Shown here: positions 212 through 17,582 of the stretch, one piece after another
Layout: the number at the start of each line of letters is the position of its first letter
Numbering within the stretch: position 1 is the stretch's first letter
The notes under the pieces: model-generated
Database searches by the model: none
Told to the model about the DNA's origin: nothing
Seen by the model: the letters and a program-made list of their open reading frames with translations, nothing else
DNA from: an uncultured virus (IMG/VR IMGVR_UViG_3300038312_000396)
Lineage: Duplodnaviria; Heunggongvirae; Uroviricota; Caudoviricetes
Virus record (IMG/VR): IMGVR_UViG_3300038312_000396
Direction: 5' to 3' (one strand)
DNA: 20,000 nt
Made by a program: the position numbers and the translations under genes

Positions 212-2056
212 CTAATTAGCATGACTATACACTCCTAAGTTAATAACATCATTTGCAAGTTTCTTTTTAAACTCTATCAATCTCTCAAAATACCCACGCT
301 CTATTTCTTCGAGTTTTAACTCTTTTAGCATATATCGGATTTGAACCCAGCCTGCATCCCAACAGTTCATATGGTAGTTTTCAGGCATCTTTGTCCGATA
401 CTTTAGAGTGTCTATGTTCGCTTTACAACAGTAATCGTACAACTCCTGAGCTTCGGGGGATACTCCCTTTAGTATAGCGTTTTTCACATACTTATCATAA
501 AATACATTCTTATGTCCATACTTCCCATAATCAGTAGTTAACAAGTCTAAACCCTGATCTTCTGCGGCTTTTAAAATCCTATTCGTGTCCATATAAAACA
601 TGGTATTTCTTACATTTTCCACATTCCCAGTGTCTACCCTTGCTGAAAACTGATAACTCTTTAAATCAAACAAACTAAATATCAAAAAATCACGTAACAA
701 TTCTTCTTCAACTTCTCTTTCAGGCTCTATTGGGGTAGACATATTTAATCCAAAGTCACCCCTGTCGGTAATTGACCTATGCGCCGCAAACATGGTGATT
801 GCTCTTTCCAAATTCTCCTTTGTTATATCTATGTATCCCTCAAAAGTTATTGGTCTGGTAGAAATAATTGCTTTTCCATTCTTTGCAAGAGTGTCTACAA
901 AAGATGTGTACGCAAAACTATTTACACTTGCTTTAAGAATTTTAACTGGTTTGCTGTTAAAGAATTTATAAGCTGGCATTTGCACATAATAGTCAGCTTC
1001 TTTCGACTTCGCCCACTCACTAATCCGTCTTTCTTTTGTCTTGAATAAACCCAACTCCATTTTCGACACTTCTCTAACATTGCCTTTACTGTCAAGTCCA
1101 ATACGTTTTATGCAACCATCGCCTATCTTGTTTACCTCAAGTTGTTTATGAGTGTAGGCAACAAATACTATACCCCAAAACTCACTGGATGTGGTGTCCG
1201 CAAACTCATTACTGTTGAAAACGATACCCTCTTGAAAATCCATATACTTCTGGATGTATGACAGCAATCCCGTGTTGTCTTTTAAATAAGTTGCCGGGGA
1301 GTATACCCCCATAACTGAATTCGTTAAATTATGAACCCTTATAAAGTCTACCACTTTAAATATAAATTGGGTGTACAGATCTCCTGTTGCCTTTCCTAAT
1401 CCTAATTCTTTCATCCATAGACTTGTTGTTGTTTCTGGTGCAAAGCTCTTAAACGGTGGATTGAAGAAAAACAGTATCTTTTCATTATTTTTTACTGCCT
1501 TTTGTAACTTATCCGGTAAAGTGTCTAAAAACCCTGTGTTAACACTATCATAATCAATAGAACACAAAAAGTCACAATTAAACATTGTGACTTCGTCAGA
1601 ATAAAACTCAGTGTTTCTAATTAAGTCGATGTCAGATTTATTTAATGTGCTAAGATAAACCTTACTTGGATTAAGGTCTTTAGCACTTCTTAACAAATTC
1701 CCTGTTCCGCACGAAACGTCCCAAACATGGCAATCTTTTAAATCTATATACTGTCCCACAATCTCTCTACCATATTGAGCTAATGTTTCAGGGGTAAAAT
1801 ACTCCCCCCCTGCTTTTCTAACTTCTGACGGAACATATCTGTCTTTATTCTGTAATAAATCTAACTGCTCCTTTTCGGAAATGTCAAAAGTATCATTTAT
1901 TAACTTAAAATATAGTTTCTCAATAGACGATAATTCCCTAAAGTCTGGTCTTATAATACCTGTAACGAATCTTGAAATTACTTCCTGCACGTTATCAGTT
2001 TTTACCGCATTTATCGACTTGTTGAAATAATCAAAATATTCCTGTCCAATCAACAT
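212..2056 (-). CDS. SAM-dependent DNA amino-methyltransferase (m6A, gamma-type motif order) with C-terminal putative target-recognition region; no nuclease domain recognised
   Basis: Motif X GEYFTP, motif I VWDVSCGTGNL, motif IV FFNPPF and DLYTQF follow the order seen in type IIG/IIL-like MTases. RBS GGGGTGG upstream. Confidence 0.85.
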   Translation of the reverse strand: MLIGQEYFDYFNKSINAVKTDNVQEVISRFVTGIIRPDFRELSSIEKLYFKLINDTFDISEKEQLDLLQNKDRYVPSEVRKAGGEYFTPETLAQYGREIVGQYIDLKDCHVWDVSCGTGNLLRSAKDLNPSKVYLSTLNKSDIDLIRNTEFYSDEVTMFNCDFLCSIDYDSVNTGFLDTLPDKLQKAVKNNEKILFFFNPPFKSFAPETTTSLWMKELGLGKATGDLYTQFIFKVVDFIRVHNLTNSVMGVYSPATYLKDNTGLLSYIQKYMDFQEGIVFNSNEFADTTSSEFWGIVFVAYTHKQLEVNKIGDGCIKRIGLDSKGNVREVSKMELGLFKTKERRISEWAKSKEADYYVQMPAYKFFNSKPVKILKASVNSFAYTSFVDTLAKNGKAIISTRPITFEGYIDITKENLERAITMFAAHRSITDRGDFGLNMSTPIEPEREVEEELLRDFLIFSLFDLKSYQFSARVDTGNVENVRNTMFYMDTNRILKAAEDQGLDLLTTDYGKYGHKNVFYDKYVKNAILKGVSPEAQELYDYCCKANIDTLKYRTKMPENYHMNCWDAGWVQIRYMLKELKLEEIERGYFERLIEFKKKLANDVINLGVYSHAN

Positions 2057-2085
2057 TATATTTCCACCCCAATAACAAATATTTT

Positions 2086-2964
2086 CTATTTATTATTAAG
2101 ATAGTTTAGAAACTCACTGCTAGTCATTATTGGTATTCCTAACTTTTGTGCTTTAACGACTTTACTTGTAAGGTCGCCTATTCCTTCCCACAAGAGTATG
2201 TCAACGTTTAACGATAAAGTTTTTATTAAGTTAATATACACCTTACCCCTGTATAAACCGTTTAATGTCTTTATAAACGCCTCTTTGGATGGATAATTCA
2301 AAATACCCCTTGATATTACTATACTAATCTCTTTTGTTACGCTCACAACATTGAGGTAATTTTCCACATGCTCTAAAACTTCACGCTCTTGTAAAAGTCC
2401 CTCAAATACCTTTATGGCAGAAATGTTATAATCTTCTTTTTCAATAAGCCCTAATTGCTGTTCAATAAAAGAAATTCCATAGGTATCTAACGTTTCAAAA
2501 AGTTCAGTGAAAGAGTCTAAACCTTTCATAATTTTCATTGCATTATCCCTAATAGCAGGGATGTTTGCCGCCCTCAAATATTCCCATAATTGAAGCTCTT
2601 TAGCCTGCACTTGATTGTAGAAATCTATCGACTTTTCCATAGATATGTCATCTGCTAAAACCCCATCTTCGTCCGGATTATATACAAGTAACTGCAAAGG
2701 GGATTGAAGTTCAAAATGGTTTACAATCTTTAACGCATTTACGTCACCAATACCTATTATTATCAAATCTTTACACATTTGTACTAACCTTTTTGCCACC
2801 TTGTATGCACAAAATTCATTACTACAAACAATACTTGTTTTTTCTTCAGTTAACGTAAGTTCGCTGCCACAATCGCAGTATTTATTACAGTTAAGTAAGT
2901 TAACCATTCGCTTATCCAAGTATTTTTCATACTTAATAACGTAATCACTGAAAGTGTAAACCAT
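2086..2964 (-). CDS. C-terminal half of a split NAD-dependent DNA ligase (Cys4 Zn finger, helix-hairpin-helix, BRCT)
   Basis: CDCGSEL...VCSNEFC matches the LigA CPxCGS..CxN..C finger. IIGIGDVNALKI and NIPAIRDNAMKI are HhH-like. The C-terminus SKVVKAQKLGIPIMTSSEFLNYL is the classic LigA BRCT ending. It has its own RBS (AAGGGGGAG) and ATG. Confidence 0.85.
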   Translation of the reverse strand: MVYTFSDYVIKYEKYLDKRMVNLLNCNKYCDCGSELTLTEEKTSIVCSNEFCAYKVAKRLVQMCKDLIIIGIGDVNALKIVNHFELQSPLQLLVYNPDEDGVLADDISMEKSIDFYNQVQAKELQLWEYLRAANIPAIRDNAMKIMKGLDSFTELFETLDTYGISFIEQQLGLIEKEDYNISAIKVFEGLLQEREVLEHVENYLNVVSVTKEISIVISRGILNYPSKEAFIKTLNGLYRGKVYINLIKTLSLNVDILLWEGIGDLTSKVVKAQKLGIPIMTSSEFLNYLNNK

Positions 2965-2979
2965 TTTAACTCCCCCTTA

Positions 2980-4257
2980 TCAAGCTTTTTCAAGTTGTTG
3001 CTTTATGTAACCAGGAAATTTTCTTGCTACAAAGTGTGGATTTTCCAGTTTTTTAAATTCTTCTTTCGGCATGTGTAACTTCTTCATTGCGTCTATAATA
3101 GTATTCCCAAGTGTAAGCACTTTCTTAAACTTCACTATCTCATCCCTATCTTCTATTTTGCCTAGAAATAAATCCCCCGAAGCATACAAATGTACTAATT
3201 GATGGCAATTTAAACACAGTGTGATTCCGTTTTCCATCGAGTCCTCGCCACCCAAACTAACAGGTACAACGTGGTGGAAGTCAAGCACATACATATGCTT
3301 TTCACCGCTTATATCAAGGCAACACTGACAAGAGTATCCATCTTTTATCATTCTTGCTTTTCTAAGTGCAGGATCAACTGGTTTTCTGTCTCGTGATACT
3401 TGTTTCTTATTTTGACGGATTTCCGAAGTCCTGTCCATTTCTTCTATTTCTGAAAGATCAAGAGTCTCCATATTACAGTTAGCTAGATTTAATAATGCAG
3501 CTATTTCATCATCCTCTAATCTCTCACGTTTCATAGGTTCAGCAGAATTTTCTACAACCTTAACAGCTTCATCAAATCCGCCTGTTTCACCTACACTGAA
3601 CATTAACTCTTCTTTCTGATCTAGTAATTCCTGCCTAGTGACCTTTTTTCTGATCATGTCTAGTTTTTTATAAGCTTGGTTTATGGTGATAGTGCCCTCT
3701 AAAAGCTGATCCCGAATGTCAATCATGTCTGATTCTGATGCCCTCATTACCTCAACCAGTTTTGTGTATTCCCCTGGTCTTAGATTAAGTAAATACTCTA
3801 TTAACTCAGGTGAAAAATTAACCATTTTTGATTCAAGAAACAGGGATGTATCCCACACTTCACCTATTGTGTAAGGTTCATATTGGTTAAGTATCAGTTC
3901 TAAATATGGAATAGCTTTCTTTGCTTTGGCTGAGTCATCAAAATTGTAAACCAATGATTGTAGTTCTGTAAACCCATTCTTTAATGCTGCATGTACACGC
4001 CTTATGCCGTTAATTAATATATATTTCTTTTTATTTTCTGTGCGCATAAGAATAGGTGGTACTAATACCCCTAGTTGGGCTACAGATGCTTTTAAACCTT
4101 TTAACCCCTGTTTCCTTGCTCTGTTTGGCGGTACAATAATATCCTCTACATTTACTTTTTCAAGTGAGATAAAAGGTTTAACAACCTCAAAATCTGTAAA
4201 GGCATTCTCAAATAAATCAACTCGTTCTTTTACACTTTCTTTCAGTATCTCATTCAT
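2980..4257 (-). CDS. ParB/Sulfiredoxin N-terminal domain fused to a C-terminal HNH endonuclease
   Basis: N-terminus LKASVAQLGVLVPPIL...LINGIRRVHAA (ParB GxRR motif). Central helical region with ITINQAYKKL. C-terminus CQCC...DFHHVVPVSLGGEDSMENGITLCLNCHQLVH is a Zn-binding McrA-type HNH. RBS AGGGAG. Confidence 0.85.
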   Translation of the reverse strand: MNEILKESVKERVDLFENAFTDFEVVKPFISLEKVNVEDIIVPPNRARKQGLKGLKASVAQLGVLVPPILMRTENKKKYILINGIRRVHAALKNGFTELQSLVYNFDDSAKAKKAIPYLELILNQYEPYTIGEVWDTSLFLESKMVNFSPELIEYLLNLRPGEYTKLVEVMRASESDMIDIRDQLLEGTITINQAYKKLDMIRKKVTRQELLDQKEELMFSVGETGGFDEAVKVVENSAEPMKRERLEDDEIAALLNLANCNMETLDLSEIEEMDRTSEIRQNKKQVSRDRKPVDPALRKARMIKDGYSCQCCLDISGEKHMYVLDFHHVVPVSLGGEDSMENGITLCLNCHQLVHLYASGDLFLGKIEDRDEIVKFKKVLTLGNTIIDAMKKLHMPKEEFKKLENPHFVARKFPGYIKQQLEKA

Positions 4258-4309
4258 GTAAGCACAACTCCCTACTATTCACATTTTACCAGCCTAAACA
4301 CATTAGCGG

Positions 4310-4327
4310 TATTTATTATAATAAATA
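4310..4327. promoter_or_regulatory. Perfect 18-bp palindrome containing a TATAAT -10-like hexamer, upstream of ParB-HNH
   Basis: TATTTATTATAATAAATA is its own reverse complement and lies about 55 nt upstream of the ParB-HNH start. It is A/T only and no clear -35 was found. Confidence 0.35.
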
Positions 4328-4376
4328 ATTGTACTTATCTTTTTTAATACTGTTACACACCCTAAAAACACTACGC

Positions 4377-4871
4377 CTAACTGTTACTTAATTTTATTAT
4401 TTCAAGTATCTTAACACATTTTGTATCTATTACTGCGAATTCAGAACAAGCATATCCCCAATACTCCATGCCATGTACTGCCTGTATATTATTGTTTACT
4501 AGCCATTTATACGCCTTTGATGAAATTGTTCCAAGAATAAGATCAGGTTCACGCAATTGAGGTAAATTTTCTAAACTTAGTTTAAAATTTTTTGTTACAA
4601 AAGAACAACTGTGTGCTAATGTGCCGGATTGATCAAAGAACATTGAATCGTATTCTCCCAAGTTTAATATTACACCACTAAATGTACACCTGTAGCAGTA
4701 CTTTGCATGACAACCGTACTTCACCATTCCTTTGTCCCACATCGGTGTAAAATACACCCCATACCCTGATGCTTGTGAATATTCACGTTTAGGTTTCACA
4801 TGTCTAAATTCAGCTATGTCTTTACTGTTAGTGAAATGATATATCTCTTTGTTTTCAACAGTATGTATCAC
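4377..4871 (-). CDS. Putative ADP-ribosyltransferase-like protein (H-Y-E clade)
   Basis: IYHFT...GYGVYFT...YCYRC...SEFAVID..CVKIL follows the YHGT / G.G.YFT / E.VVFD..IKI pattern of phage ART-like domains. The GTG start sits 1 nt after the ligase-N stop, with RBS GGGGGAG (translational coupling). Confidence 0.55.
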   Translation of the reverse strand: MIHTVENKEIYHFTNSKDIAEFRHVKPKREYSQASGYGVYFTPMWDKGMVKYGCHAKYCYRCTFSGVILNLGEYDSMFFDQSGTLAHSCSFVTKNFKLSLENLPQLREPDLILGTISSKAYKWLVNNNIQAVHGMEYWGYACSEFAVIDTKCVKILEIIKLSNS

Positions 4872-4872
4872 C

Positions 4873-6153
4873 TTACTCCCCCAATTCCATTAATTTATAT
4901 AATGTTCCGATAACATTGCCATCTGCGTCACAAGGTATTATCCCCGCTTCACCACCATATTTAAAGTGTATTGTTTCACCCTCATACGCTTCAAGTAATT
5001 CAAGTGCTGCAAGATTATACAGAGGTACATTCCTGACAGTATTTCCGTTTTCCACAACAACAGGTCTAACAACTGCTTTTGGTGTAATCTTCGACTTTCC
5101 TTGACAAAACTCTATTTTTTCAATTATTGAAGAATACACTTCCTGTTGCCATTTACCCATTTTTAAAGCAACATTGCCTCGATTAATAGTTGTGTCACTT
5201 CCAAGTGAGTTAAATATGCCTACATCATTTATTGAAGTCACAATACCATCTGTATCATATTGATACGTCTCTTTATGCTCTCCTAAAACATCTAGTATTT
5301 CTTCTATGTCATCCTCAAAAGAACCAAACGGCGCTATTGTAGCCGTGGCGTATAAAGGTACTTCAAAACCTAAAGATTCTAAATACTCAAATTTTTCTTC
5401 TAAAGTATTGAATTGATGCACATTGTCCCCATATATGTCATATGCAACAAAATTTAATAGCTTCATTTCATCTTCTGTTGCGTAAGGTCTAATTAAAGAA
5501 GATACTGCTGAAAATACCGACTTTATATCAGGGTTAAATTTACGGGCTTTACTTAAAGCATGCTTGTTTAGTACAATTTCCCCCCTTAATTCTACCAATC
5601 CTAAACTACTTAATTTTGTTAAATTTTTATCGGAAAGTATAACACTTAAATGGTTAGTCGTATCTCTGCCCCTTTTATACCTGCCTTTTGTACTTGCAGA
5701 AACAACTTTACCGTCATGTATTGCCGCTCTACCAGCATGCCCATTTAACTTGAAAGAACTAACACACTCAATTTCCCTGATACCCTTTTGTTTTACTAAA
5801 TCCTGCAACTCTTTTCTAAACCTATCTAAGTCTCTCATTTCTTTTATCGTTTCAATAGACTTCATAGGTATTTTAGTTAAGTACTTATCTTTATCCTTAT
5901 CAATTTCACCATAATCCATAGCGTAAACTTCATTTAATACGTCTGCATCAGGCTTTAATTTTTTTAAAATCCCTCTCAGCCTATCATATAACGTGTTTGA
6001 TACTTCTTCCTCGCCTTTTTCATATGAAATATTATAGTCTCTTACTTTATCAGTCAGTGTTTCTACAATCTCGTCTACAGTCCCCTCTAGTTGATCTTGC
6101 GAAATTCCTAAATTTGATAGTAATATCCTATCTTGTACATTGAATTCTATCAT
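4873..6153 (-). CDS. ligA: N-terminal half of a split NAD-dependent DNA ligase (domain Ia, adenylation domain, OB fold)
   Basis: Ia YNISYE...VSNTLYDRL, then PMKSI, motif I FKLNG, motif III ELRGEI, motif IV DTDGIV and motif V VALK. OB region GKSKITPKAVVRPVVVENGNTVRNVPLYN...GEAGIIP. It stops before the Zn finger. Confidence 0.9.
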   Translation of the reverse strand: MIEFNVQDRILLSNLGISQDQLEGTVDEIVETLTDKVRDYNISYEKGEEEVSNTLYDRLRGILKKLKPDADVLNEVYAMDYGEIDKDKDKYLTKIPMKSIETIKEMRDLDRFRKELQDLVKQKGIREIECVSSFKLNGHAGRAAIHDGKVVSASTKGRYKRGRDTTNHLSVILSDKNLTKLSSLGLVELRGEIVLNKHALSKARKFNPDIKSVFSAVSSLIRPYATEDEMKLLNFVAYDIYGDNVHQFNTLEEKFEYLESLGFEVPLYATATIAPFGSFEDDIEEILDVLGEHKETYQYDTDGIVTSINDVGIFNSLGSDTTINRGNVALKMGKWQQEVYSSIIEKIEFCQGKSKITPKAVVRPVVVENGNTVRNVPLYNLAALELLEAYEGETIHFKYGGEAGIIPCDADGNVIGTLYKLMELGE

Positions 6154-7039
6154 GTGTAGTCCTCCAATCTTTGAAGTTCTTAAGACCTGAAATTGAACGC
6201 TCTACTTGTTTTGGTAATGCAAGACAATATAAATTTTCTTCATTTTTTACCCTATCTGTGATTCCGTACCGCACTAAGTCCAACCCTAGTTTTTTAAAAT
6301 TACCAATGTTTATTAAGCATAGCATTGTTTTTTCATGTCCTTTATAAAACCCCTTTACCGTTGATTCTATAGTCCTGTTATACTTGACCTCTAAATGCTC
6401 AAAACCATCATCTAAAGTTTCTAACATTTGATCTTTTAAACTTTCATTCAAAAAATAAAAACTAATAAGACCTAAACGAAAGTTCTTTATGTAATTATTT
6501 TTTTCTGCTGTAGATATTACGTTAACACCACTGTTTATTTCATAGGCGTGGGTATACGCTATTCCCAATGAGTCATATACATCATCCGGTACACCCATCT
6601 CTAAAAACTCTGTTATATTATAAATGTGACCTAACGCTTCTTGTACTGCTTCTTTATGCCTACCTGTGATGCGAATAGCTTCATTTACTATCGCTAATAA
6701 CTTAGATTTCCATTCTGTGTTAGGTATTTTATAAATATCGAACACCACATCGGGATACAGCATTTTTATGTCTTCTGCACACTCATTCAGTATTATTAAC
6801 AACCTACTAGTGTCAAAATTTACCGAACCAAAAACATCTTCTATTACAACATCAGTAACGTCATACTTGTCAATTAACTTAGCTAAATACTTTATAAGTC
6901 TTTTTCTTACAGATGTTACGTCTCTTTCATCCTTATTGATTAAAAAACCAGTGTATAACGGATTATAGTCCAAATCCAATATTGAACACCCTGTACTGCT
7001 TTTCGATATATCTGCTCCCAGTATGATTCTTTTATTCAT
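6128..7039 (-). CDS. ruvC: RuvC-like Holliday junction resolvase (RNase H fold) with ~130-aa C-terminal extension
   Basis: ILGADISKSSTG, VVIEDVF, IPNTEWK and DDVYDSLGIA supply the D-E-D-D catalytic pattern. It overlaps the ligase start by 26 nt. Confidence 0.75.
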   Translation of the reverse strand: MNKRIILGADISKSSTGCSILDLDYNPLYTGFLINKDERDVTSVRKRLIKYLAKLIDKYDVTDVVIEDVFGSVNFDTSRLLIILNECAEDIKMLYPDVVFDIYKIPNTEWKSKLLAIVNEAIRITGRHKEAVQEALGHIYNITEFLEMGVPDDVYDSLGIAYTHAYEINSGVNVISTAEKNNYIKNFRLGLISFYFLNESLKDQMLETLDDGFEHLEVKYNRTIESTVKGFYKGHEKTMLCLINIGNFKKLGLDLVRYGITDRVKNEENLYCLALPKQVERSISGLKNFKDWRTTHDRIQCTR

Positions 7040-7052
7040 TGTCTAATACCCC

Positions 7053-7685
7053 TTATTCTTTTAAATATCTTTTGAATATTTCATTTAATTCTGAATTCTT
7101 TAAGTCAATTTCTTTACCATGTATTATTATCATATCAAAAAGACAATGCACTTTTAAGTTAGCCTGCGATACCCTTTCGTTTAAATTATATAATCTTTTG
7201 TTTGTGATTACATTTGTCTTGTCCTGCCTTACCTTTTCCATTAATTTGCTACGTCTTTCTTTATAGTCCTTTATCTTGCTTTTAATGTCTTCCTCAATAA
7301 TTTCTAAAGTATCAGATTCATCTACTATAAACTTAGGAATTTCCACCTTATACATGTTAGCCAAATCTAACAAGGCATCCACATAACTTACTTTGCTCTT
7401 TAATTGTATACTCATAAAGGCTCTGTGTATACCTATAACATTACCGCCCACCGAACAACCAAAACAATTAGCAAAATTTCTTTTCTTCTCGTATGAAAAG
7501 GATGGATCAGTGTCATCATGAAAAGGACAAATTATCGCACTTACGGATATATCCTTGTTTGCATCGCCCTTATACTTCTTAGGATATGCAGGTATTATAA
7601 CCTTGTTTATATGCTCAGGTAACGAAACCTTTTCAACTATCTCGTTTTCAGCTTTTTTATATAATGTCTTGTTAAAAATATACAC
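7053..7685 (-). CDS. Stand-alone DnaG-type CHC2 zinc-binding-domain protein (no TOPRIM/catalytic primase core)
   Basis: ICPFHDDTDPSF...NCFGCSVGGNVI...VSYVDALLDLANMYKVEI is a DnaG ZBD signature. The start is probably a GTG at 7685-7691 after AAAGGTGG, because the ORF-track ATG at 7754 lies inside a terminator hairpin. Confidence 0.8.
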   Translation of the reverse strand: MYIFNKTLYKKAENEIVEKVSLPEHINKVIIPAYPKKYKGDANKDISVSAIICPFHDDTDPSFSYEKKRNFANCFGCSVGGNVIGIHRAFMSIQLKSKVSYVDALLDLANMYKVEIPKFIVDESDTLEIIEEDIKSKIKDYKERRSKLMEKVRQDKTNVITNKRLYNLNERVSQANLKVHCLFDMIIIHGKEIDLKNSELNEIFKRYLKE

Positions 7686-7737
7686 CACCACCTTTATCTC
7701 TAACCAACATTGTTTAATTAAATTTAGTTGTGCGAAC

Positions 7738-7775
7738 AGAAAACCTGTAAACATTTATGTGTTTACAGGTTTTCT
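7738..7775 (-). terminator. Intrinsic terminator (possibly bidirectional)
   Basis: Perfect 16-bp inverted repeat AGAAAACCTGTAAACA / TGTTTACAGGTTTTCT with a 6-nt loop; T-rich ends on both strands. Confidence 0.8.
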
Positions 7776-8460: not shown

Positions 8461-9939
8461 TTATTCCTGTACTATTTCACCAAAAAATGAACATACCCCT
8501 ATGTTCCCTACCATGTAGAAAGGTGAAAAGTACTTTCCTACCCTTGATGGTATGGGTAATACCTGTACCCTGCCTAACTGTAACTCTTCTTGTGTTGCGT
8601 ATAGTCCTATATTTTTGTCAGGTGTTTTAATTGTCTCGTATGTGCCGCCCCCAGAAGTTCTTAAATCAATGTCCTTACCTTGATGTAATGCGTCAACTAT
8701 ATCTGCTTTAAACTGTGCAGGTAAAATAGTAGCAAAACCTAATTTCTTCTGTAACCTCAATAACCTAACATAGCCCAGTTCTAATGCCTGTGTCTTAGTG
8801 ATTTTAGTGTAGTCTATGAGTCCTAAATAATCCACTACAAGTAAATCGAAAGGATCAGTCTCATACGCTCTTTCTAACTCATCTAAAAAAGTATCAACAT
8901 GACAAGGTTTGTCAATAAACTGGATACTCCCATAATCAGGATTAGTTATTAAATCATAATAAGAAGCAAATTCAGCTTGCCTATATTCCTCTGATGGGTA
9001 TAACTGTTTCTTTATTGTTTCCGAATCCAGTTCAACATAAACATTATCCTCTGAATTGTAATAGTAATCAAAATGTCTAGCTCTCAATAAGGGTGTCCAA
9101 GTTAAATGATTCCCCTCTAATACCCATATTGCCACTCTTTGTTTATTGACTACTACCGCTCTATGAGCTAAGTAGGCTGAAAATCTCGTTTTACAAGACT
9201 TTGCAGGTGCTAGTAAAGACACCATTTCACCAGAATATATCGCACCATATGCTTTGTCTAGAGGTCCAATTCCAAAGTCAGTAACTTTTCTTAATGTGTT
9301 TTTATCTGATTCTGTACTTTCTTTATAGTAGTCTAAGTCTAGTTTAAATACCCCTCTGTGCTCTGTTTCAGACGATATTATTAAATTGTCTAACTTTGTA
9401 AATGCTTTACTTAAATATTGTTTTGTATCGTCATATCCTTGTAAGGTTTTCTTACCCTGCTGTACACCATCCAACATTATTGTGGTTGCAGTATCAATTT
9501 CTTTAAGCGTGTATTCCGCTTTAAATCCGTCAATATACCCTTTTACAGCGTCTTTGAAAGTCTCAAAAGACACAATTTCGTCAGCTATCTCATTGTATAC
9601 CTCTAAACAGCTGCTTATAAAGGCTTCAACAGAGGTCATCCCCTCGCTCTCTCCCCCTATTAATTGCCTGTAATCTTCCATATTTATTAACTTTGATTCC
9701 TCAAACTTACCTTTGTTACGCTCCAAAGTGGAAAGTAACGAATCTTCTGAAATAACATAAATCTCTTTCCGTGCACTTATTAATGAATAAAAAACTGAGT
9801 ACTCGTTTTTAAATATGTTTTCTCTTACCTTTGTCTTTAGATAATTGTGACATAACTTTATGTTCTCTAGTAGTTGCTTATCGTCTACCGAAATTTCTCT
9901 GTAAATTAACCCCCCAAAAATAGTCTTGTCAAACTCCAC
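8461..9939 (-). CDS. dnaB: DnaB-like (SF4) replicative helicase, divergent
   Basis: DFGIGPLDKAYGAIYSGEMVSLLAPAKSCKT (H1), IWVLEG (H1a), LLVVDYLGLI (H2), ILPAQ (H3) and DLRTSGG..TPD...SRVG (H4), with a helical N-terminal domain. Confidence 0.85.
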   Translation of the reverse strand: MEFDKTIFGGLIYREISVDDKQLLENIKLCHNYLKTKVRENIFKNEYSVFYSLISARKEIYVISEDSLLSTLERNKGKFEESKLINMEDYRQLIGGESEGMTSVEAFISSCLEVYNEIADEIVSFETFKDAVKGYIDGFKAEYTLKEIDTATTIMLDGVQQGKKTLQGYDDTKQYLSKAFTKLDNLIISSETEHRGVFKLDLDYYKESTESDKNTLRKVTDFGIGPLDKAYGAIYSGEMVSLLAPAKSCKTRFSAYLAHRAVVVNKQRVAIWVLEGNHLTWTPLLRARHFDYYYNSEDNVYVELDSETIKKQLYPSEEYRQAEFASYYDLITNPDYGSIQFIDKPCHVDTFLDELERAYETDPFDLLVVDYLGLIDYTKITKTQALELGYVRLLRLQKKLGFATILPAQFKADIVDALHQGKDIDLRTSGGGTYETIKTPDKNIGLYATQEELQLGRVQVLPIPSRVGKYFSPFYMVGNIGVCSFFGEIVQE

Positions 9940-10477: not shown

Positions 10478-10549
10478 TTATACCACCGTCTTTCGTCTCT
10501 TTGTTTCTCTGTTTACTCTCATTAGTTTACTGCTCTCTCACTTATGTTT

Positions 10550-10801
10550 CTATTTCCAGACAAAGCCCTTTTTCCTACAATATGCTCTGTCAACAACAGA
10601 CGTATTAACCGCTTCTACAGACATATCTTGTCTTCCAAGCTTTAAGTTTAACTTATGCGCAGCTCTATTTGCTGCTTCTAGGTCTTTAAAACAAATTGCG
10701 GTAGATAGCCCAACACTATCTAAGTCGGAAAAGTATGCGAATTTATCGCATATGCCTAAAAATACACCTTTATTTTTATTAACGACTATGTAATTACTCA
10801 T
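10550..10801 (-). CDS. Small hypothetical protein
   Basis: 83-aa ORF with RBS GAGAGGT. Confidence 0.7.
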   Translation of the reverse strand: MSNYIVVNKNKGVFLGICDKFAYFSDLDSVGLSTAICFKDLEAANRAAHKLNLKLGRQDMSVEAVNTSVVDRAYCRKKGFVWK

Positions 10802-10956: not shown

Positions 10957-13080
10957 TTATACCAACGCTAATGCCACATTAGTTGCCTCTCCTGATTTAT
11001 AGTTTACAGCACAGTCTAATGTCACAAGTTGCATATCTCTAATGTTGTCTATTTTTCCTGCAAATACCGCAGTTTTAGCGGTCTTTGACTTACGAAGTAT
11101 ATCTGTAAACTTAACTGTTGCCTGTTTTCCAAGTAATGATGTAACTTTTACGTACACATTATCGCTGTCTGAATCTGCAAACTCTATTGAACCAATATAA
11201 TTCCCGTCTGCAAATCCTTTTTGTATGTACTTCTGCTTACGTTTATCAGTAACAAACTCATTACTCGAAACAATACAAATTCTACCGTCATCATCACAAA
11301 ACACATATGTCATATCAGGTTTCCAGAGTTTAATATCAATTATTTCAGCATCCTCTATCCCAAAATCCGATAGAATGAATACCCCTGTTTTCTTACCAGT
11401 AGTATACTCTATATTTTCCAAGTATACCTTATAAATTTCACCAGTTGAGGCGAACAACATTATAACATCATTTGCCTTGCAGTTTACGTTGTATACACAG
11501 TTAGACGGCATTTTTGCGTTCATACTATTCTTGTATATAAACAAATCTTCCGTGATGCCAATTTGAACATTTGACCTGTCAACTGGTTTTTCATAAATAA
11601 CTGTAACAGGTGTCAAATCTTCGGGATACTCGTCATATATAACTGACTTTTGTCGATACCCTTTTTTCTCAAACTTAACCTGTAGCCCCGATAATTCATC
11701 AACAATGAAAGGTACTGGATCAAGTACAATTTCCTCAGCACGTTGAAGCTCTTTTGTTAGGTTTACTAACTGCTCTTTTTTCTGTTCAAGCGAAAACTTC
11801 CTTATGTCTTTTATTTTTAAGTCCAATAAGAATTCAAATATCTGCTGATTGAATGGTGTAACCCTTGCTTTTAAGTAGTTGTAAAGCACAATATCATTGT
11901 CCTCATTCTTAACAAGTTTAACCCATTCATCAATATCAACTTTTGCCATAAAGCTCATGTATGCTTGTAAAAACATCAGCTTACTTTCCAAATCTTCAAC
12001 AAGTAACTTAAAGTGTTTACTTACAACTGCCTTACGCCATTTACACCACTCTATAAGTAAGTGTCTTACACCTATTTGTTTTAGGGAATTCCCGTCTATT
12101 ACATTAATGTTTACCGGGTAATTCTTCTGTAGGTCTGATTTATTCAATATGTAATTAACTACAGCATCAGGTTCTCCGTTGAGTTTTATAACAAGTTTGA
12201 AACCTTTAATGCCTGATTCGTCTTTAGCTTCAATAAACCGTGTTCTAAAATAATTGTCCCGTTTCGCCAACTTATAAAGCCCATCAATAACATTTTCAAT
12301 TATAACTCCATAAGGTAACTCGGTAACAACCATTTCAAAATATCTACCTTTTTGTTCGATCGAATAAGTAGCATATATCGGAATTGATCCTTTACCTCTT
12401 GTCCATATTTCTTTCATGCTCTCCCACAGTGCTACAATACTCCCGCCAGTCGGAAAGTCAGGTCTCAAATCCATGTAATTAAATTCTTTTCCTTGTATAA
12501 CCGCCTTTGTAGCCTCAATTAAGTCAATCACATTAAAGGATGGAATTGATGTTGCAAACCCTACCGCAATACCCTCTGTGGGATTTGCTAAAACCGCAGG
12601 AAAATTGACAGGTAACGCCTTTGGTTCTGTGTTTTTGTTATCGTACGATGGTAACATTTCAACAGAGTCTAAGAACTCAAAATATTCCTTAGCGTGGTCT
12701 TCTAACATAGCTTCTGTATAACGTGGTGCGGCACTTGCAAAATTAGATGTTACTGAACCAAAGTTTCCTTTTCCATAAATCAACGGAAAGTTCCATGCAC
12801 CATACTTGTCTGTCATTCTAGTCATAGTCTCGTATATAGCCATGTCACCATGAGGATGCAACTTCATAACTTCACCAACAACGTTAGCACTCTTTGTCTT
12901 GTTATTTAACAACTTCTGCTTGTACATTGTATACAGAATTCTTCTTTGAGATGGCTTTAACCCGTCCTGTAAGTCCGGTATAGCCCTGTCCAATAATACC
13001 TTTACCGCATAAGGCATGTAATTACCGTAAATAACATCCCTTATATCTGTGTCTACAACTGTCTGTTTTGCTAAACTCAT
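10957..13080 (-). CDS. Type IIA DNA topoisomerase subunit A (GyrA/ParC family; topo IV-like, no GyrA-box)
   Basis: DRAIPDLQDGLKPSQRRILY, KSANVVGEVMKLHPHGD, catalytic AAPRYTEA, GIAVGFATSIPSFN and PDFPTGG. Likely ATG at 13080 after AGGTGGGTG (ORF-track start is 13092). Confidence 0.95.
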   Translation of the reverse strand: MSLAKQTVVDTDIRDVIYGNYMPYAVKVLLDRAIPDLQDGLKPSQRRILYTMYKQKLLNNKTKSANVVGEVMKLHPHGDMAIYETMTRMTDKYGAWNFPLIYGKGNFGSVTSNFASAAPRYTEAMLEDHAKEYFEFLDSVEMLPSYDNKNTEPKALPVNFPAVLANPTEGIAVGFATSIPSFNVIDLIEATKAVIQGKEFNYMDLRPDFPTGGSIVALWESMKEIWTRGKGSIPIYATYSIEQKGRYFEMVVTELPYGVIIENVIDGLYKLAKRDNYFRTRFIEAKDESGIKGFKLVIKLNGEPDAVVNYILNKSDLQKNYPVNINVIDGNSLKQIGVRHLLIEWCKWRKAVVSKHFKLLVEDLESKLMFLQAYMSFMAKVDIDEWVKLVKNEDNDIVLYNYLKARVTPFNQQIFEFLLDLKIKDIRKFSLEQKKEQLVNLTKELQRAEEIVLDPVPFIVDELSGLQVKFEKKGYRQKSVIYDEYPEDLTPVTVIYEKPVDRSNVQIGITEDLFIYKNSMNAKMPSNCVYNVNCKANDVIMLFASTGEIYKVYLENIEYTTGKKTGVFILSDFGIEDAEIIDIKLWKPDMTYVFCDDDGRICIVSSNEFVTDKRKQKYIQKGFADGNYIGSIEFADSDSDNVYVKVTSLLGKQATVKFTDILRKSKTAKTAVFAGKIDNIRDMQLVTLDCAVNYKSGEATNVALALV

Positions 13081-13204
13081 TACTTCACCCACCTTAAATA
13101 AAAAACTTGATATACCTATATAATTAAAGTATCAATTAATTATCATGTATAACCTTTAATATCCTTTACCTTAAAAAACAAATTCTCACAATAAAAACTA
13201 GTAA

Positions 13205-14635
13205 TCACTCTTTAATCTTGTAACAATAAGTTTCGTCACCGTTTTCAGTCTCGTAAATAATTGTGTGGTCTCTAAAATTAACAGAAACAATTTTACTTGC
13301 ATTTATAGATAGATACATGTTATTATCAACATGATATACGTCAAACAAGTGATTTTCTTTATGTAATACTACTATAATAGCATCATCTTGATGTTCTTGG
13401 TCTTTACTGTATTGTGAAAAGGTATTAACAACAGTCTGAAAATATATTGGAGGTACAATCACCTTACAATTTACCATTAAGCCATATCTATTGTTCCTTT
13501 TAACTTTGTAAATCTGTAAAGAGCCATATGTTCCCGACAATGCCCCATTAAATGCTAAAGTTACGATATTTGAGTAAAGACTCCCAACTAATGGGTCACC
13601 TGTGTATTCATTGTTACAAGTATCTGAACCATAAGCAAATACCTTAAAGCTATTACCTTTATGCACCACAAAATTATCTTTTGTAAACTGACAAAAATCC
13701 GAATCCACATAGGTCTTCACAGGTAAATAATGTGAAACCGATTTGTTACTGTCTTTCCATAAAACCTCAAAATTAAATCCTGCTATCGCCTTGTCCTTAG
13801 GTATTATGTACTCGTTTTCTCTTAAATATTCTAGTAGGTCAATTAACTTAGTGCTTGTCCAAGTGTTTAAATTTGTTTTTCTTTCCCAGTCTATACTTGC
13901 TGTCACTGTCATTTCTTTATCTAAAAAAATAATTAATTCAACATCTTTATTGTGAATGCAATTATATTCACTGTCTAATTCATTATATAACCCAGTTACT
14001 ATATTTTTTACTTTTACATTTATTTCTCTAAGTTCATCCCACGGAATATACTCGTCAAAATAGTCTATTCCCTCTTCAATTAAACAATATCCCTCTTTCT
14101 TTTTTAAACACACTAATTTCTCGTTATACACTTCTAGTGTGTTGTGCCTTTGTAAGTACAGCCTACACTTATCATTTTTAATACCCTCTGTTCTCGCTAA
14201 TACTTTGCATCCCTCGGTATTTACCACGCTTTCAATTTCTCCCCTACTGCCTAAATAGTACACGTTGTTATTCCCATCTGTTAAATATAAAAAGTTCCGG
14301 TTATCTACAGAATTAACAAGCCCTTTAAACCTTATATTTGTATGTAACACCTTGCAGTTAACGGAATCAACCACACGTAGACCGTCAAAGATATCTCCTG
14401 TATAAATTACAAGTAGTTCTGAATTGTACAAAGTATATAAAAGATCGTAACTTATTTTAAAACTACCATCTAGGGTAGTAATTAACCGAATTTCAGGAAA
14501 TACCATCAAGTTATTTTTCACCTTATAGTCTGTAACTTTTCTACCATAAAGTACACTTAAGGTGTGACACACATCCATTCGTTGTTGCAAATCTTCCATT
14601 GTCTCGTCAATATCTAAAATACCAGTTTCAGTCAT
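13205..14635 (-). CDS. Hypothetical beta-strand-rich protein, with one WG-repeat-like segment
   Basis: 476-aa ORF rich in Y/V/I short-strand patterns. KVKRNNRYGLMVNCKVIVPPIY resembles WG beta-repeat units. Confidence 0.7.
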   Translation of the reverse strand: MTETGILDIDETMEDLQQRMDVCHTLSVLYGRKVTDYKVKNNLMVFPEIRLITTLDGSFKISYDLLYTLYNSELLVIYTGDIFDGLRVVDSVNCKVLHTNIRFKGLVNSVDNRNFLYLTDGNNNVYYLGSRGEIESVVNTEGCKVLARTEGIKNDKCRLYLQRHNTLEVYNEKLVCLKKKEGYCLIEEGIDYFDEYIPWDELREINVKVKNIVTGLYNELDSEYNCIHNKDVELIIFLDKEMTVTASIDWERKTNLNTWTSTKLIDLLEYLRENEYIIPKDKAIAGFNFEVLWKDSNKSVSHYLPVKTYVDSDFCQFTKDNFVVHKGNSFKVFAYGSDTCNNEYTGDPLVGSLYSNIVTLAFNGALSGTYGSLQIYKVKRNNRYGLMVNCKVIVPPIYFQTVVNTFSQYSKDQEHQDDAIIVVLHKENHLFDVYHVDNNMYLSINASKIVSVNFRDHTIIYETENGDETYCYKIKE

Positions 14636-14814: not shown

Positions 14815-14854
14815 AAATAAAAGGAAATTTTCCTAACTGTTAAGTTAGGAAAAT
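14815..14854 (-). terminator. Intrinsic terminator overlapping the stop of topoisomerase subunit B
   Basis: 12-bp stem ATTTTCCTAACT-TAAC-AGTTAGGAAAAT (14827-14854) followed on the minus strand by TTCCTTTTATTTT. Confidence 0.65.
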
Positions 14855-16791
14855 ACCTCTGCCAAATTCATGTTTTTCATATAATCTACTATCAATGTTT
14901 TTCTTTCCTCTAAATTGTCTCCAAGTAAAGCATTAAATATCCATGATGTCATTTCCTCATGTTGTTCTTCGTCATACTCTACCCGTACAAGTCTTCTGGT
15001 ATCTGGACACATCGTAGTCTGCCACATCATGTCTGGATTATTTTCACCAAGACCTTTAGATCTATTCACAGTGTGACGTACTCCTTTTGCATTTAAACTC
15101 TCTACAATGCTGTCCTTTTCTTCATTTGAATAAGCAAACAGGGATTCTTTACTTGTCTCTATTTCAAATAAAGGTGATTCTGCAATATAAACTCTGCCTT
15201 GCTTTAATAGTGCAGGATATAACCTGTAAAAGAACGCTAGTATTAATGTTCTTATCTGGAAACCATCCTCGTCAGCGTCTGTACATATAACAAACTTTTC
15301 CCACTCCCGTATGTCACCAAATGATACCCTGCCTACTCCCCTTAATTCCACGTTCTCATTAATGATTTTTATTAAACGCAAGATTATGTCGTTTGAAAGT
15401 ATTTGTGTAACATCCGACTTCAAACAGTTCTTAATTTTACCTCTTACGGAAGTGATTGCTTGAAACTCACTGTCTCTTGCTTGTCTACAAGAACCCATAG
15501 CAGAATCTCCCTCAACTATGTAAAGCTCTCTATTATAATTACTTCTGCAATCAACAAACTTGTCAATAGGAGAATTATCAAATTCCTCAATTTTTTCCTG
15601 TGCCTTTTTAATTTGCTTTTTCAATTTTGCAGCTGTCTCTTGCGCTTTTTCATGTACGTCAATTACTTTTTTAAAGTAGTCTCGAATTTCTTTATTCTTT
15701 TGAAATATCTTACCAATCTCAACACTAAGCACTTCTGTGAGAACCGTTTCTAGCCCTTTGTTTAAAACTGTTCTTTTTGCCTGTCCGTCATAGGATGTTG
15801 AAGTTGAGCGAGTGAATATAAATGCACTTAGATTACCCTCTAAATTGTAGATGTCTCTAAGATACAATCCTTTGTCCAGTGATTCGCTTAAACCTCTACC
15901 TACCCCTTGAAATAAAGACTTTGAATGTATTCCCCCACGACTTCCTTTGTCAACTTCAACCATGTTGTGGAAGAACCTAACTTCACCACCATTTTGAACA
16001 AACGCAAAAGCTATTTTATACTCGTACCTGTAAGCATCACTACCATCTCTTTTATCGGATGTTGTTCCGCTACCCTCTGTGAACAAGTAGTCTGAAATTA
16101 CTTTTTCTTTGGTCTTGTCCTTTAACACTTCTTTGTAATCTTTTGAACCTATTACTTCGGTTTCACCTGTAACTTCATCTTTAAAGTTAAAAGTGACCCC
16201 CGATGCTAGTGCCATCCCCTGTATTGTAGGTATAAACCAATTATCATCTATTTCTATTTCGTCAAAAACTTCTAAATCAGGTAGCCAACGTATCCTTGTG
16301 CCTGTTTCGGATGGATTATCTGAATTAGTTATGCTAAGTTCTGTAACTGGATCGCCTTTTTTAAAACTTATCTTATATGTCTTTCCCCCACGTTTAGATT
16401 CTACTTCCATGTATGTAGACGCAAACTGTACAACCGTAAGTCCTACTCCGTTTAACCCTACTGACATGTCATATTCTGTACCACTATACTTACCGCCTGC
16501 AAATAATTGTGTGAATATCAATTCCCAATTATATTTGCCCTCTTTTTCATTGTAATCCATTGGTATGCCCCTACCTCTGTCTACTACCTCTAATGAATGG
16601 TCTGCATACCTTGTTATGTCAATTACTTTACCAAAACCCATAGACGCTTCATCTAATGAGTTACCGACAACCTCAACTACAGTGTGTTTAACAGCATTAA
16701 GATCGTGTGATTGCAACCATATGTCTGGCTTTAATCGTACCTTTTCTTTTTCCGACAGTGACCGTATATTAGTCTCCGATAAATTACTCAA
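14845..16791 (-). CDS. Type IIA DNA topoisomerase subunit B (GyrB/ParE family)
   Basis: GHKL motifs EVVGNSLDE, DRGRGIP, AGGKY and GLNGVG. TOPRIM motifs IVEGDSA, SVRGKIKN and TDADEDG, then RSKGLGE. Likely TTG start at 16791 after GAGGGGTGA (ORF-track start is 16800). Confidence 0.95.
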   Translation of the reverse strand: MSNLSETNIRSLSEKEKVRLKPDIWLQSHDLNAVKHTVVEVVGNSLDEASMGFGKVIDITRYADHSLEVVDRGRGIPMDYNEKEGKYNWELIFTQLFAGGKYSGTEYDMSVGLNGVGLTVVQFASTYMEVESKRGGKTYKISFKKGDPVTELSITNSDNPSETGTRIRWLPDLEVFDEIEIDDNWFIPTIQGMALASGVTFNFKDEVTGETEVIGSKDYKEVLKDKTKEKVISDYLFTEGSGTTSDKRDGSDAYRYEYKIAFAFVQNGGEVRFFHNMVEVDKGSRGGIHSKSLFQGVGRGLSESLDKGLYLRDIYNLEGNLSAFIFTRSTSTSYDGQAKRTVLNKGLETVLTEVLSVEIGKIFQKNKEIRDYFKKVIDVHEKAQETAAKLKKQIKKAQEKIEEFDNSPIDKFVDCRSNYNRELYIVEGDSAMGSCRQARDSEFQAITSVRGKIKNCLKSDVTQILSNDIILRLIKIINENVELRGVGRVSFGDIREWEKFVICTDADEDGFQIRTLILAFFYRLYPALLKQGRVYIAESPLFEIETSKESLFAYSNEEKDSIVESLNAKGVRHTVNRSKGLGENNPDMMWQTTMCPDTRRLVRVEYDEEQHEEMTSWIFNALLGDNLEERKTLIVDYMKNMNLAEVFS

Positions 16792-16933
16792 AAAAATCAC
16801 CCCTCAAATTTTAAATATTTATGAAACTACCCTTTTTATCATTACAGTACTAATTTTATACAAAGTAAATAAGAATTAAATTAAGTATAAGAATTTCAAT
16901 TACCCTTGATACCCTTTTGTACTTCTTATAACA

Positions 16934-17042: not shown

Positions 17043-17582
17043 TTATGTAGCTTGATTGCTTTCTGCACTTCTATTCTTTAGACTTTTCTCAGGTATAACA
17101 AGTGACACAACTGTGTTAATCGCTAATATTATAGTTGTAATTGCAGAAACATAATTAAGTATGTGTAAGTGATAAACAAACCACATTATTTGTGTTATTA
17201 ACATAGACCATTTCAAGTGTTTAGGTTGTTTAGCAATAAGCATACCTAAAGTATAGCCTACACTCGCCACACAAGGTAATACTGAATAAAAGCTATCGAC
17301 AAAAGGGATGTTCACTATAAACGTAATAGAGATCAAAAATATAGTGTGCCATTTTGAATCCCATTTCTTCAGTACAAAAATGTTCCTAGTCAATGTAACT
17401 ATGCTAGATATTGCCCCTGTGAATCCTTTTAACACCAAACAACTCACTATGTCTACTATCTTTTTCCAGGTCTGTATCTTTACCATACCCTCTTTGGTTT
17501 TTGAGTAAACCGATATAGCAAACAATATTGAACCTACTGCACCTAATATGTTACCTAACACAACCACAGTACCACCGCCCAC
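17043..17582 (-). CDS. YgjV-family-like inner membrane protein
   Basis: About 6 hydrophobic segments with the pattern GNILGAVGSILFAIS...LVLKGFTGA...TRN...LP...W.VYH...Y typical of YgjV-type proteins. The true start may be the GTG at 17567. Confidence 0.7.
   Translation of the reverse strand: MGGGTVVVLGNILGAVGSILFAISVYSKTKEGMVKIQTWKKIVDIVSCLVLKGFTGAISSIVTLTRNIFVLKKWDSKWHTIFLISITFIVNIPFVDSFYSVLPCVASVGYTLGMLIAKQPKHLKWSMLITQIMWFVYHLHILNYVSAITTIILAINTVVSLVIPEKSLKNRSAESNQAT

Follow-up and report, generated by a model that had tools for sequence, protein, structure and literature searches.

Two non-adjacent genes of an uncultivated large phage probably encode the subunits of an NAD+-dependent DNA ligase

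The stretch of DNA analysed here, referred to below as the window, comprises 20,000 nucleotides (nt) of an uncultured virus of the Caudoviricetes (IMG/VR record IMGVR_UViG_3300038312_000396). Two open reading frames (ORFs) in this window encode proteins that correspond to the N-terminal and C-terminal parts of LigA, the DNA ligase dependent on nicotinamide adenine dinucleotide (NAD+). These two genes and their products are called LigN and LigC, and the interval between them holds two further ORFs, ORF164 and a gene termed PH, which encodes a nuclease-like protein with ParB_N and HNH domains (Table 1). A first-pass annotation made from the sequence alone had described LigN and LigC as one ligase naturally broken at the linker between the OB fold and the zinc finger. 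Both ORFs are real and lie on the minus strand, and each has a Shine-Dalgarno-like sequence, a start and a stop of its own, as that annotation had stated and as is also true of the intervening ORFs. Its assignment of domain Ia, the adenylation or nucleotidyltransferase (NTase) domain and the OB fold to LigN, and of a Cys4 zinc finger, HhH and BRCT domains to LigC, is borne out by sequence profiles and, for LigC, by the fold of an AlphaFold2 (AF2) model.

LigN is matched by the Pfam model DNA_ligase_aden (E = 6.2e-18, residues 94–331) and by the PHROG family phrog_3359 (E = 1.1e-24). When aligned with profiles of complete ligases, it occupies positions 9–372 of the 656 in phrog_3869, a full-length phage LigA profile, and positions 3–376 of the 664 in the NCBIfam LigA model PRK07956. 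A LigN profile likewise aligns with residues 4–378 of E. coli LigA (4glx, E = 4e-29) and with the PR1 phage ligase chain 9hu3_A (E = 1e-25). The extension of the alignment to E. coli residue 378 places an OB fold after the NTase domain, and the protein then ends with a tail of ~19 amino acids (aa) beyond the sequence GGEAGIIP. The nucleophile of LigN, Lys135, aligns with K115 of the E. coli enzyme and is invariant in 30 members of the clade to which LigN belongs. Equivalents of E. coli K115, G118, E173, D285, G286 and K314 are all invariant in an alignment of 14 sequences (alignment A6). Domain Ia of the E. coli enzyme binds nicotinamide mononucleotide through Y22, H23, D32, Y35 and D36. The equivalents of D32, Y35 and D36 are invariant or nearly so, and those of Y22 and H23 are not conserved across the clade.

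The LigC family is missed by every Pfam ligase model, LigC itself giving no Pfam match, and such proteins are easily left 'hypothetical' during annotation. In the full-length profiles, LigC occupies positions 397–654 of 656 in phrog_3869 (E = 3.6e-11) and positions 400–663 of 664 in the NCBIfam LigA model, and it also matches phrog_3498, which is of the T5 ligB type (E = 7.1e-11). A LigC profile built from 58 sequences aligns with residues 403–661 of Thermus filiformis LigA (1dgs, E = 1.3e-17) and with subunit B of the PR1 ligase (9hu3_B, E = 3.7e-17). The AF2 model of LigC has a predicted local distance difference test (pLDDT) value of 94.9, and a Foldseek search ranks E. coli LigA (9a6z_B, E = 1.8e-8) and again subunit B of the PR1 ligase (9hu3_B, E = 5.3e-8) highest. 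Structural alignment with VIA-align superimposes LigC residues 49–208 on the HhH domain of Deinococcus radiodurans LigA (residues 438–593; Z 12.5, root-mean-square deviation (rmsd) 3.1, 147 residues) and residues 211–292 on BRCT domains (RFC1 BRCT; Z 9.6, rmsd 1.9, 74 residues). Across the 58 LigC relatives, the four cysteines of the zinc finger (C30, C32, C47 and C52) are the sole invariant columns. The 29-aa leader that precedes the first of these cysteines is modelled as a short strand and two helices with pLDDT above 90. Thus, as the first-pass annotation had proposed, the two halves rebuild one LigA in the correct order, jointly accounting for positions 3–376 and 400–663 of the 664-position NCBIfam model.

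The same division is found throughout the relatives of these proteins. A LigN search of 5.8 billion proteins with lengths of 234–746 aa, a range that takes in single-chain LigA, returned 162 matches at E ≤ 0.001, and the 120 of these that were listed are all 357–497 aa long. In an alignment of 30 LigN relatives, every sequence stops shortly past the G-G-E-x-G motif of the OB fold. The LigC profile was searched against 1.84 billion representatives of any length and gave 540 matches, of which the best 150 measure 146–534 aa, with a median near 306. None of the relatives, 120 listed ones of the N type and 153 of the C type, is fused or carries the other half, and Pfam gave no family for the extra parts of longer C-type proteins (P0135, P0152 and others). 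The lengths of the LigN tail and the LigC leader vary across the clade. Nine close pairs of relatives yield ratios of nonsynonymous to synonymous substitution rates (dN/dS) of 0.024–0.149 for LigN, 0.015–0.121 for LigC and 0.016–0.148 for PH, and all three genes are therefore under purifying selection. The split at the OB/zinc-finger linker is old and is fixed in the whole phage clade.

Gene arrangement was compared in 84 loci, four from IMG/VR and 80 from metagenomes, that were scanned with LigN, PH and LigC profiles (L005 and L051 are the same contig). Two of the metagenome contigs derive from the window's own phage: L010 is 100% identical to the window and L009 is 98.65% identical. A LigN ORF is present in 83 loci, the exception being L085, and these form 33 clusters at a LigN identity of at least 80%. 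LigN is followed by PH and then by LigC in 11 clusters, and by PH and then the end of the sequence in three others. A single cluster, with 11 loci, has the permuted order PH, LigC and then LigN 1.9–2.8 kb downstream, and in another, represented by L032 only, LigC lies 8.8 kb upstream of LigN. Neither PH nor LigC occurs within ~9.9 kb on either side of LigN in eight clusters, or within −9.85/+6.98 kb of it in one more (L057), and in the remaining eight clusters the flanks are too short for judgement. Where both halves are seen, they are separated by 1689–4830 nt in 33 loci with LigN first and by 1940–8814 nt in 11 loci with LigC first. The survey of related genomes that the first-pass annotation had called for thus recovers only split forms, with PH as the usual occupant of the gap; across the 33 clusters, the halves are nowhere fused and nowhere directly adjacent.

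Gap ORFs other than PH vary between relatives and mostly lack a Pfam family. Several relatives have, directly upstream of LigC, a 390–460-aa protein without a Pfam family that is absent from the window. This protein falls into two BLAST groups, one comprising L006:14558-15865, L007:14210-15562, L022:13840-15012 and L053:14502-15812, and the other L048:13089-14462, L070:13421-14758 and L086:13408-14751. The permuted cluster carries an isochorismatase-family protein (L025:5168-5677, Pfam E = 1.3e-22) between PH and LigC, and a non-specific endonuclease (L025:8102-8833) between LigC and LigN.

The PH protein is assigned by Pfam matches to HNH (E = 7e-9, residues 310–356) and ParB_N (E = 2.1e-8, residues 43–116). 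Of the 44 loci with a LigC gene, 42 (12 of 13 clusters) have PH upstream of it and on its strand, and the two loci without PH have less than 1.5 kb of upstream sequence. This position is kept even where LigN sits elsewhere, although the spacing between PH and LigC ranges from 9 to 3789 nt and unrelated ORFs sometimes intervene. Eighteen aligned PH homologues conserve the G-x-R-R box of ParB and the HH...N...H residues of the HNH domain, except for the homologue in L007. That protein (L007:11956-13551) has lost the HNH catalytic histidines, with QQ in place of HH, and is still encoded by a full-length ORF of 532 aa. In L015 and L050, PH is broken into two ORFs.

The LigN, PH and LigC genes have diverged together. 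Among 14 representatives, the pairwise identity matrices of the three proteins correlate with Pearson coefficients of 0.96–0.97, and none of 2000 Mantel permutations gave a value as high. The first-pass annotation had held that incongruent phylogenies of the two halves, combined with a lack of interaction, would speak against a split ligase; the LigN and LigC matrices agree instead (r 0.96–0.97). Because PH co-diverges with both halves and is itself under purifying selection, it appears to be an old, vertically inherited and selected gene, and not a recent insertion of a homing endonuclease. One patch within PH runs counter to this picture. When the window is compared with L009, the two 250-nt bins at 3001–3500, which cover the HNH region and the C-terminal part of PH, contain 25 and 18 mismatches, and the other full bins contain 0–6, except for 11 at 10501–10750. 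The differences at 3001–3500 are mostly synonymous, and the synonymous divergence (dS) of this pair is 0.141 for PH versus 0.023 for LigN and 0.035 for LigC. This pattern suggests a local recombination tract. PH may descend from an endonuclease that once inserted at this site and was later domesticated, or it may be a nuclease that settled in a pre-existing intergenic gap. Complex prediction for LigC with PH returned 'no answer' (score 0.01 versus a mark of 0.32) and gives no evidence either way.

Ligases of the LigA family that are distributed over two genes are already known from phages T5 and PR1. In T5, ligA (323 aa) and ligB (259 aa) lie ~200 bp apart, and a Klebsiella T5-like phage has the same layout. 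In Vibrio phage VPT02, a 187-aa ORF without a Pfam family (L090:3673-4233) separates the two subunit genes, which shows that T5-type halves are not always adjacent; the first-pass annotation had given them as neighbours, and this holds for T5 and the Klebsiella phage but not for VPT02. A passage of PMC3632103 names T5 ligA and ligB as subunits A and B. T5 LigA matches 1117 phage records (E ≤ 1e-8), 526 of them at 60% identity or more. Protein Data Bank entries 9HU3 and 9I5I, released on 2026-01-14, bear the title 'PR1 phage heterodimeric DNA ligase in complex with 21-mer nicked DNA containing phage nick sequence'; a literature search found no paper behind 9HU3.

The ligase genes of the window resemble those of the T5-like phages in that one subunit has the adenylation and OB domains and the other the zinc finger, HhH and BRCT domains, and in that the same linker is broken. 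T5 LigA ends ~9 residues past its G-G-V-I-P sequence and LigN ~19 residues past G-I-I-P, and T5 LigB begins eight residues before its first cysteine, compared with the 29-aa leader of LigC. In contrast to the ~200 bp between the halves in T5 and the Klebsiella phage, or the one ORF in VPT02, the window has 1.9 kb and two ORFs between its halves. Moreover, the window clade has a ParB-HNH gene conserved in or near the gap, its ligase genes are never neighbours and can be reordered, and its motif I reads KxNGH instead of KLDG. Thus, this is a variant of a known theme, marked by non-adjacent genes, PH, a leader on LigC and an Asn in motif I. The single-chain LigA enzymes of E. coli and of phages PA1C, LIS04, Y3, RisingSun and others share the domain order Ia, NTase, OB, zinc finger, HhH and BRCT, and they have in common the catalytic Lys, the equivalents of E173, D285, G286 and K314, and the Cys4 finger. 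However, they are made as one polypeptide (639–716 aa in phages) and not from two ORFs with two more between, and LigN is only ~25% identical to the single-chain LigAs of cultured jumbo and other phages.

A tree was built from 42 N-terminal regions; Campylobacter phage A11a was left out because no long ORF spans its match. The 30 clade members form one group with a Shimodaira–Hasegawa-like approximate likelihood ratio test (SH-aLRT) value of 100, and the three T5-like LigAs group with seven single-chain LigAs (94), apart from the clade. A single origin of both splits, with all split forms placed in one clade, is not rejected by the approximately unbiased (AU) test (p 0.298).

We interpret LigN and LigC as the two subunits of one NAD+-dependent DNA ligase of this large phage, most probably a heterodimer like the T5 and PR1 enzymes. 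The part of the first-pass proposal that stands firmly is that two products complement one LigA, as judged by homology and by the T5/PR1 precedent; that they form a heterodimer is probable. The comparisons directly show the domain content and complementarity of the two proteins, the clade-wide split, the synteny, the co-divergence and the purifying selection, and from them we infer the heterodimer, its ligase activity and any part that the ParB-HNH protein plays. In such an enzyme, LigN would take adenosine monophosphate from NAD+ onto Lys135 and would perform the chemistry, and LigC would contribute the half that binds DNA to the clamp with which single-chain LigA encircles a nick. Both proteins would be made separately and would come together on nicked DNA without a covalent bond, in the manner of the T5-like heterodimer. 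The tail of LigN and the modelled leader of LigC together are a candidate docking element.

Several observations weigh against this interpretation. Motif I has the sequence K-x-N-G-H throughout the 30 aligned clade members and K-L-D-G in the LigAs of E. coli, T5, PA1C, LIS04 and Y3, and this motif I Asp was reportedly essential in an alanine scan of E. coli LigA; a literature search on Asp117 mutagenesis gave nothing relevant. Neither R200 nor K290 of E. coli LigA has a conserved equivalent in the clade, although the K290 equivalent is lost as well in two single-chain phage LigAs, those of LIS04 and Y3. The Pfam OB, ZBD, HhH and BRCT models all remain under threshold on the LigN and LigC proteins, so that the domain mapping the first-pass annotation had recommended succeeds with LigA profiles and falls short with these Pfam models; for DNA_ligase_OB on LigN, the values are E = 0.0031 and 17.8 bits, below the curated 32.9. 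Finally, eight to nine clusters have no LigC within ~10 kb of LigN, and co-expression of the two is therefore not a given. As a separate feature of motif I, the Asp-to-Asn change in the clade is accompanied by a Leu-to-His change after the Gly.

Two other explanations give PH a larger part. The first-pass annotation had pointed to Aeromonas phage Aeh1, in which nrdA is said to be split by a free-standing HNH endonuclease gene into nrdA-a, mobE and nrdA-b, and the window shares with that case an HNH-family ORF between separately translated halves of an essential replication-related enzyme. By analogy, a selfish and still mobile HNH homing endonuclease would have split a single-chain ligase gene, and the halves would re-associate as a side effect. 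The ORFs broken in L015 and L050, the lost histidines in L007, and the pile-up of mismatches and raised dS of PH relative to L009 would all fit such an element. Yet no unsplit allele exists among the listed N-type relatives, the C-type relatives or the 33 clusters, every one of which is split, and, by its identity matrix, PH has diverged in step with both halves across a deep clade. The dN/dS values of PH are low, its gene stays upstream of LigC even where LigN has moved away, and, as further differences from Aeh1, the nuclease carries a ParB_N domain and the halves can be reordered or lie more than 10 kb apart. Because T5-like phages have the same break without an HNH gene between the halves, the fission need not be the doing of PH at all. 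A recent insertion of the Aeh1 kind is thus not upheld, and a mobile endonuclease seems an unlikely cause of the split. It is similarly doubtful, but conceivable, that LigN, the ParB-HNH protein and LigC form one module that makes and seals breaks or nicks, for example site-specific nicks as in T5-like phages. PH would then be the third component, a nuclease or nickase that acts at directed sites in association with LigC, and this one BRCT/HhH DNA-binding subunit would serve both cutting and sealing; the Asp-to-Asn change in motif I would mark tuning for that task. The near-constant placement of PH upstream of LigC, the co-divergence and purifying selection of all three genes, and the mention of a 'phage nick sequence' in the title of 9HU3, a heterodimeric ligase of the T5 type, are consistent with this idea. 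On the other hand, the PH–LigC spacing is variable and admits unrelated ORFs, L007 keeps PH without its HNH catalytic His residues, and linkage alone is weak evidence of joint function.

The remaining explanations dispense with a partnership between the halves or with the split itself. LigN might be a working minimal ligase of domains Ia, NTase and OB, and LigC an independent DNA-binding or BRCT scaffold protein, as the clusters without a nearby LigC and the variable tail and leader lengths would allow. We consider this improbable: LigC keeps the complete C-terminal architecture of LigA with an invariant Cys4 finger, and the T5-type precedent has been solved as a heterodimer on nicked DNA. In addition, Ia-NTase-OB fragments of LigA self-adenylylate but, when they lack the zinc finger and HhH domains, are poor at binding and sealing nicked DNA, which also counts against a self-sufficient LigN. 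There is hardly any likelihood that the arrangement results from misassembly, that the ligase is a decaying pseudogene, or that an intron or intein joins the halves. The arrangement recurs in the two independent contigs L009 and L010 and in dozens of related contigs, and is therefore neither a chance pattern nor the misassembly that the first-pass annotation had allowed for; fragmentary contigs from four other DNA runs, which show no joints, bridge the PH/LigC and ORF164/PH junctions only. Purifying selection on both halves argues against decay. As for a spliced transcript, which that annotation had also considered, no Rfam family, introns included, matches positions 1800–6400 at E ≤ 1, and the permuted order PH-LigC-LigN rules out cis-splicing in the cluster that has it. 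An intein would need more than the ~48 aa that the tail and leader have together, and the permuted order speaks against this possibility as well, as do the ribosome-binding sites that the intervening ORFs have of their own.

With a two-subunit ligase as the preferred reading, the fission of LigA at the OB/zinc-finger linker is not peculiar to T5-like phages but has also become fixed in another large, uncultivated group of phages. These proteins offer natural material for asking how a ligase core and a DNA clamp meet without a covalent link, whether the motif I Asp is truly indispensable, and why a ParB-HNH gene travels with the clamp subunit.

The surroundings of the ligase genes were also characterized (Table 1). 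All long ORFs in the window are on the minus strand, the GC content is ~34%, and, when read along the gene strand, the window has the content of a phage replication module. The start codon of ORF164 (GTG) lies one base past the LigN stop, and that of LigC lies 15 bases past the PH stop. No terminator-like site was found on the gene strand at 1900–7200, which together with this tight spacing fits one transcription unit. Promoter-like sites number 21, compared with 23.0 in shuffled sequence, and because they are not commoner than expected, no promoter is claimed in the gap between the ligase halves. The closest named phages have less than 40% identity even for the topoisomerase. A megablast search of a phage collection gave no match, and scanning viral contigs with a single protein revealed no locus.

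Table 1. Positions of genes and sequence features in the window.
Feature	Positions	Strand	Length (aa)	Remarks
179-aa protein	17043-17582	-	179	Bacterial inner-membrane family Imp-YgjV, Pfam E = 4.5e-20
GyrB-like topoisomerase II subunit	14845-16800	-		
476-aa ORF	13205-14635	-	476	Between GyrB-like and GyrA-like subunits; no Pfam or PHROG family
GyrA-like topoisomerase II subunit	10957-13092	-		
DnaB-like helicase	8461-9939	-		
Stand-alone DnaG-type zinc-ribbon protein	7053-7754	-	233	CHC2 zinc ribbon, Pfam E = 4.3e-14
RuvC-like resolvase	6128-7039	-		
LigN	4873-6153	-	426	Domain Ia, NTase domain, OB fold, ~19-aa tail
Motif I of LigN	5743-5751	-		LigN residues 135–137
Lys135 of LigN	5749-5751	-		Nucleophile
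ORF164	4377-4871	-		Possibly ADP-ribosyltransferase-like
PH	2980-4257	-		ParB_N-HNH nuclease gene
ParB_N domain of PH	3910-4131	-		
HNH domain of PH	3190-3330	-		
LigC	2086-2964	-	292	29-aa leader, Cys4 zinc finger, HhH, BRCT
Cys4 zinc finger of LigC	2809-2877	-		
N6-methylase-like protein	212-2056	-	614	Weakly matches N-6 DNA methylase in Pfam (E = 5.9e-5); directly downstream of LigC

The zinc-ribbon protein that adjoins the DnaB-like helicase has the CHC2 ribbon only, without a Toprim domain. A passage of PMC7824862 mentions jumbo phages with primase zinc ribbons as stand-alone proteins. The Imp-YgjV protein has its gene inside the phage replication region.

ORF164, whose homologues are confined to two clusters, has no Pfam or PHROG match at default thresholds, its similarity to Pfam Tox-ART-HYD1 reaching only E = 0.22. 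A profile search of the Protein Data Bank gave no match at E ≤ 10, and the AF2 model (pLDDT 43.9) is unusable. Its nearest ESM Atlas cluster is an AcrIF11-type ADP-ribosyltransferase (ART), with a score of 0.95 and 197 of 256 features shared, and ART-PolyVal clusters come next. ORF164 is thus possibly ART-like, and if so, the gene for an NAD+-consuming enzyme stands beside that for an NAD+-dependent ligase.

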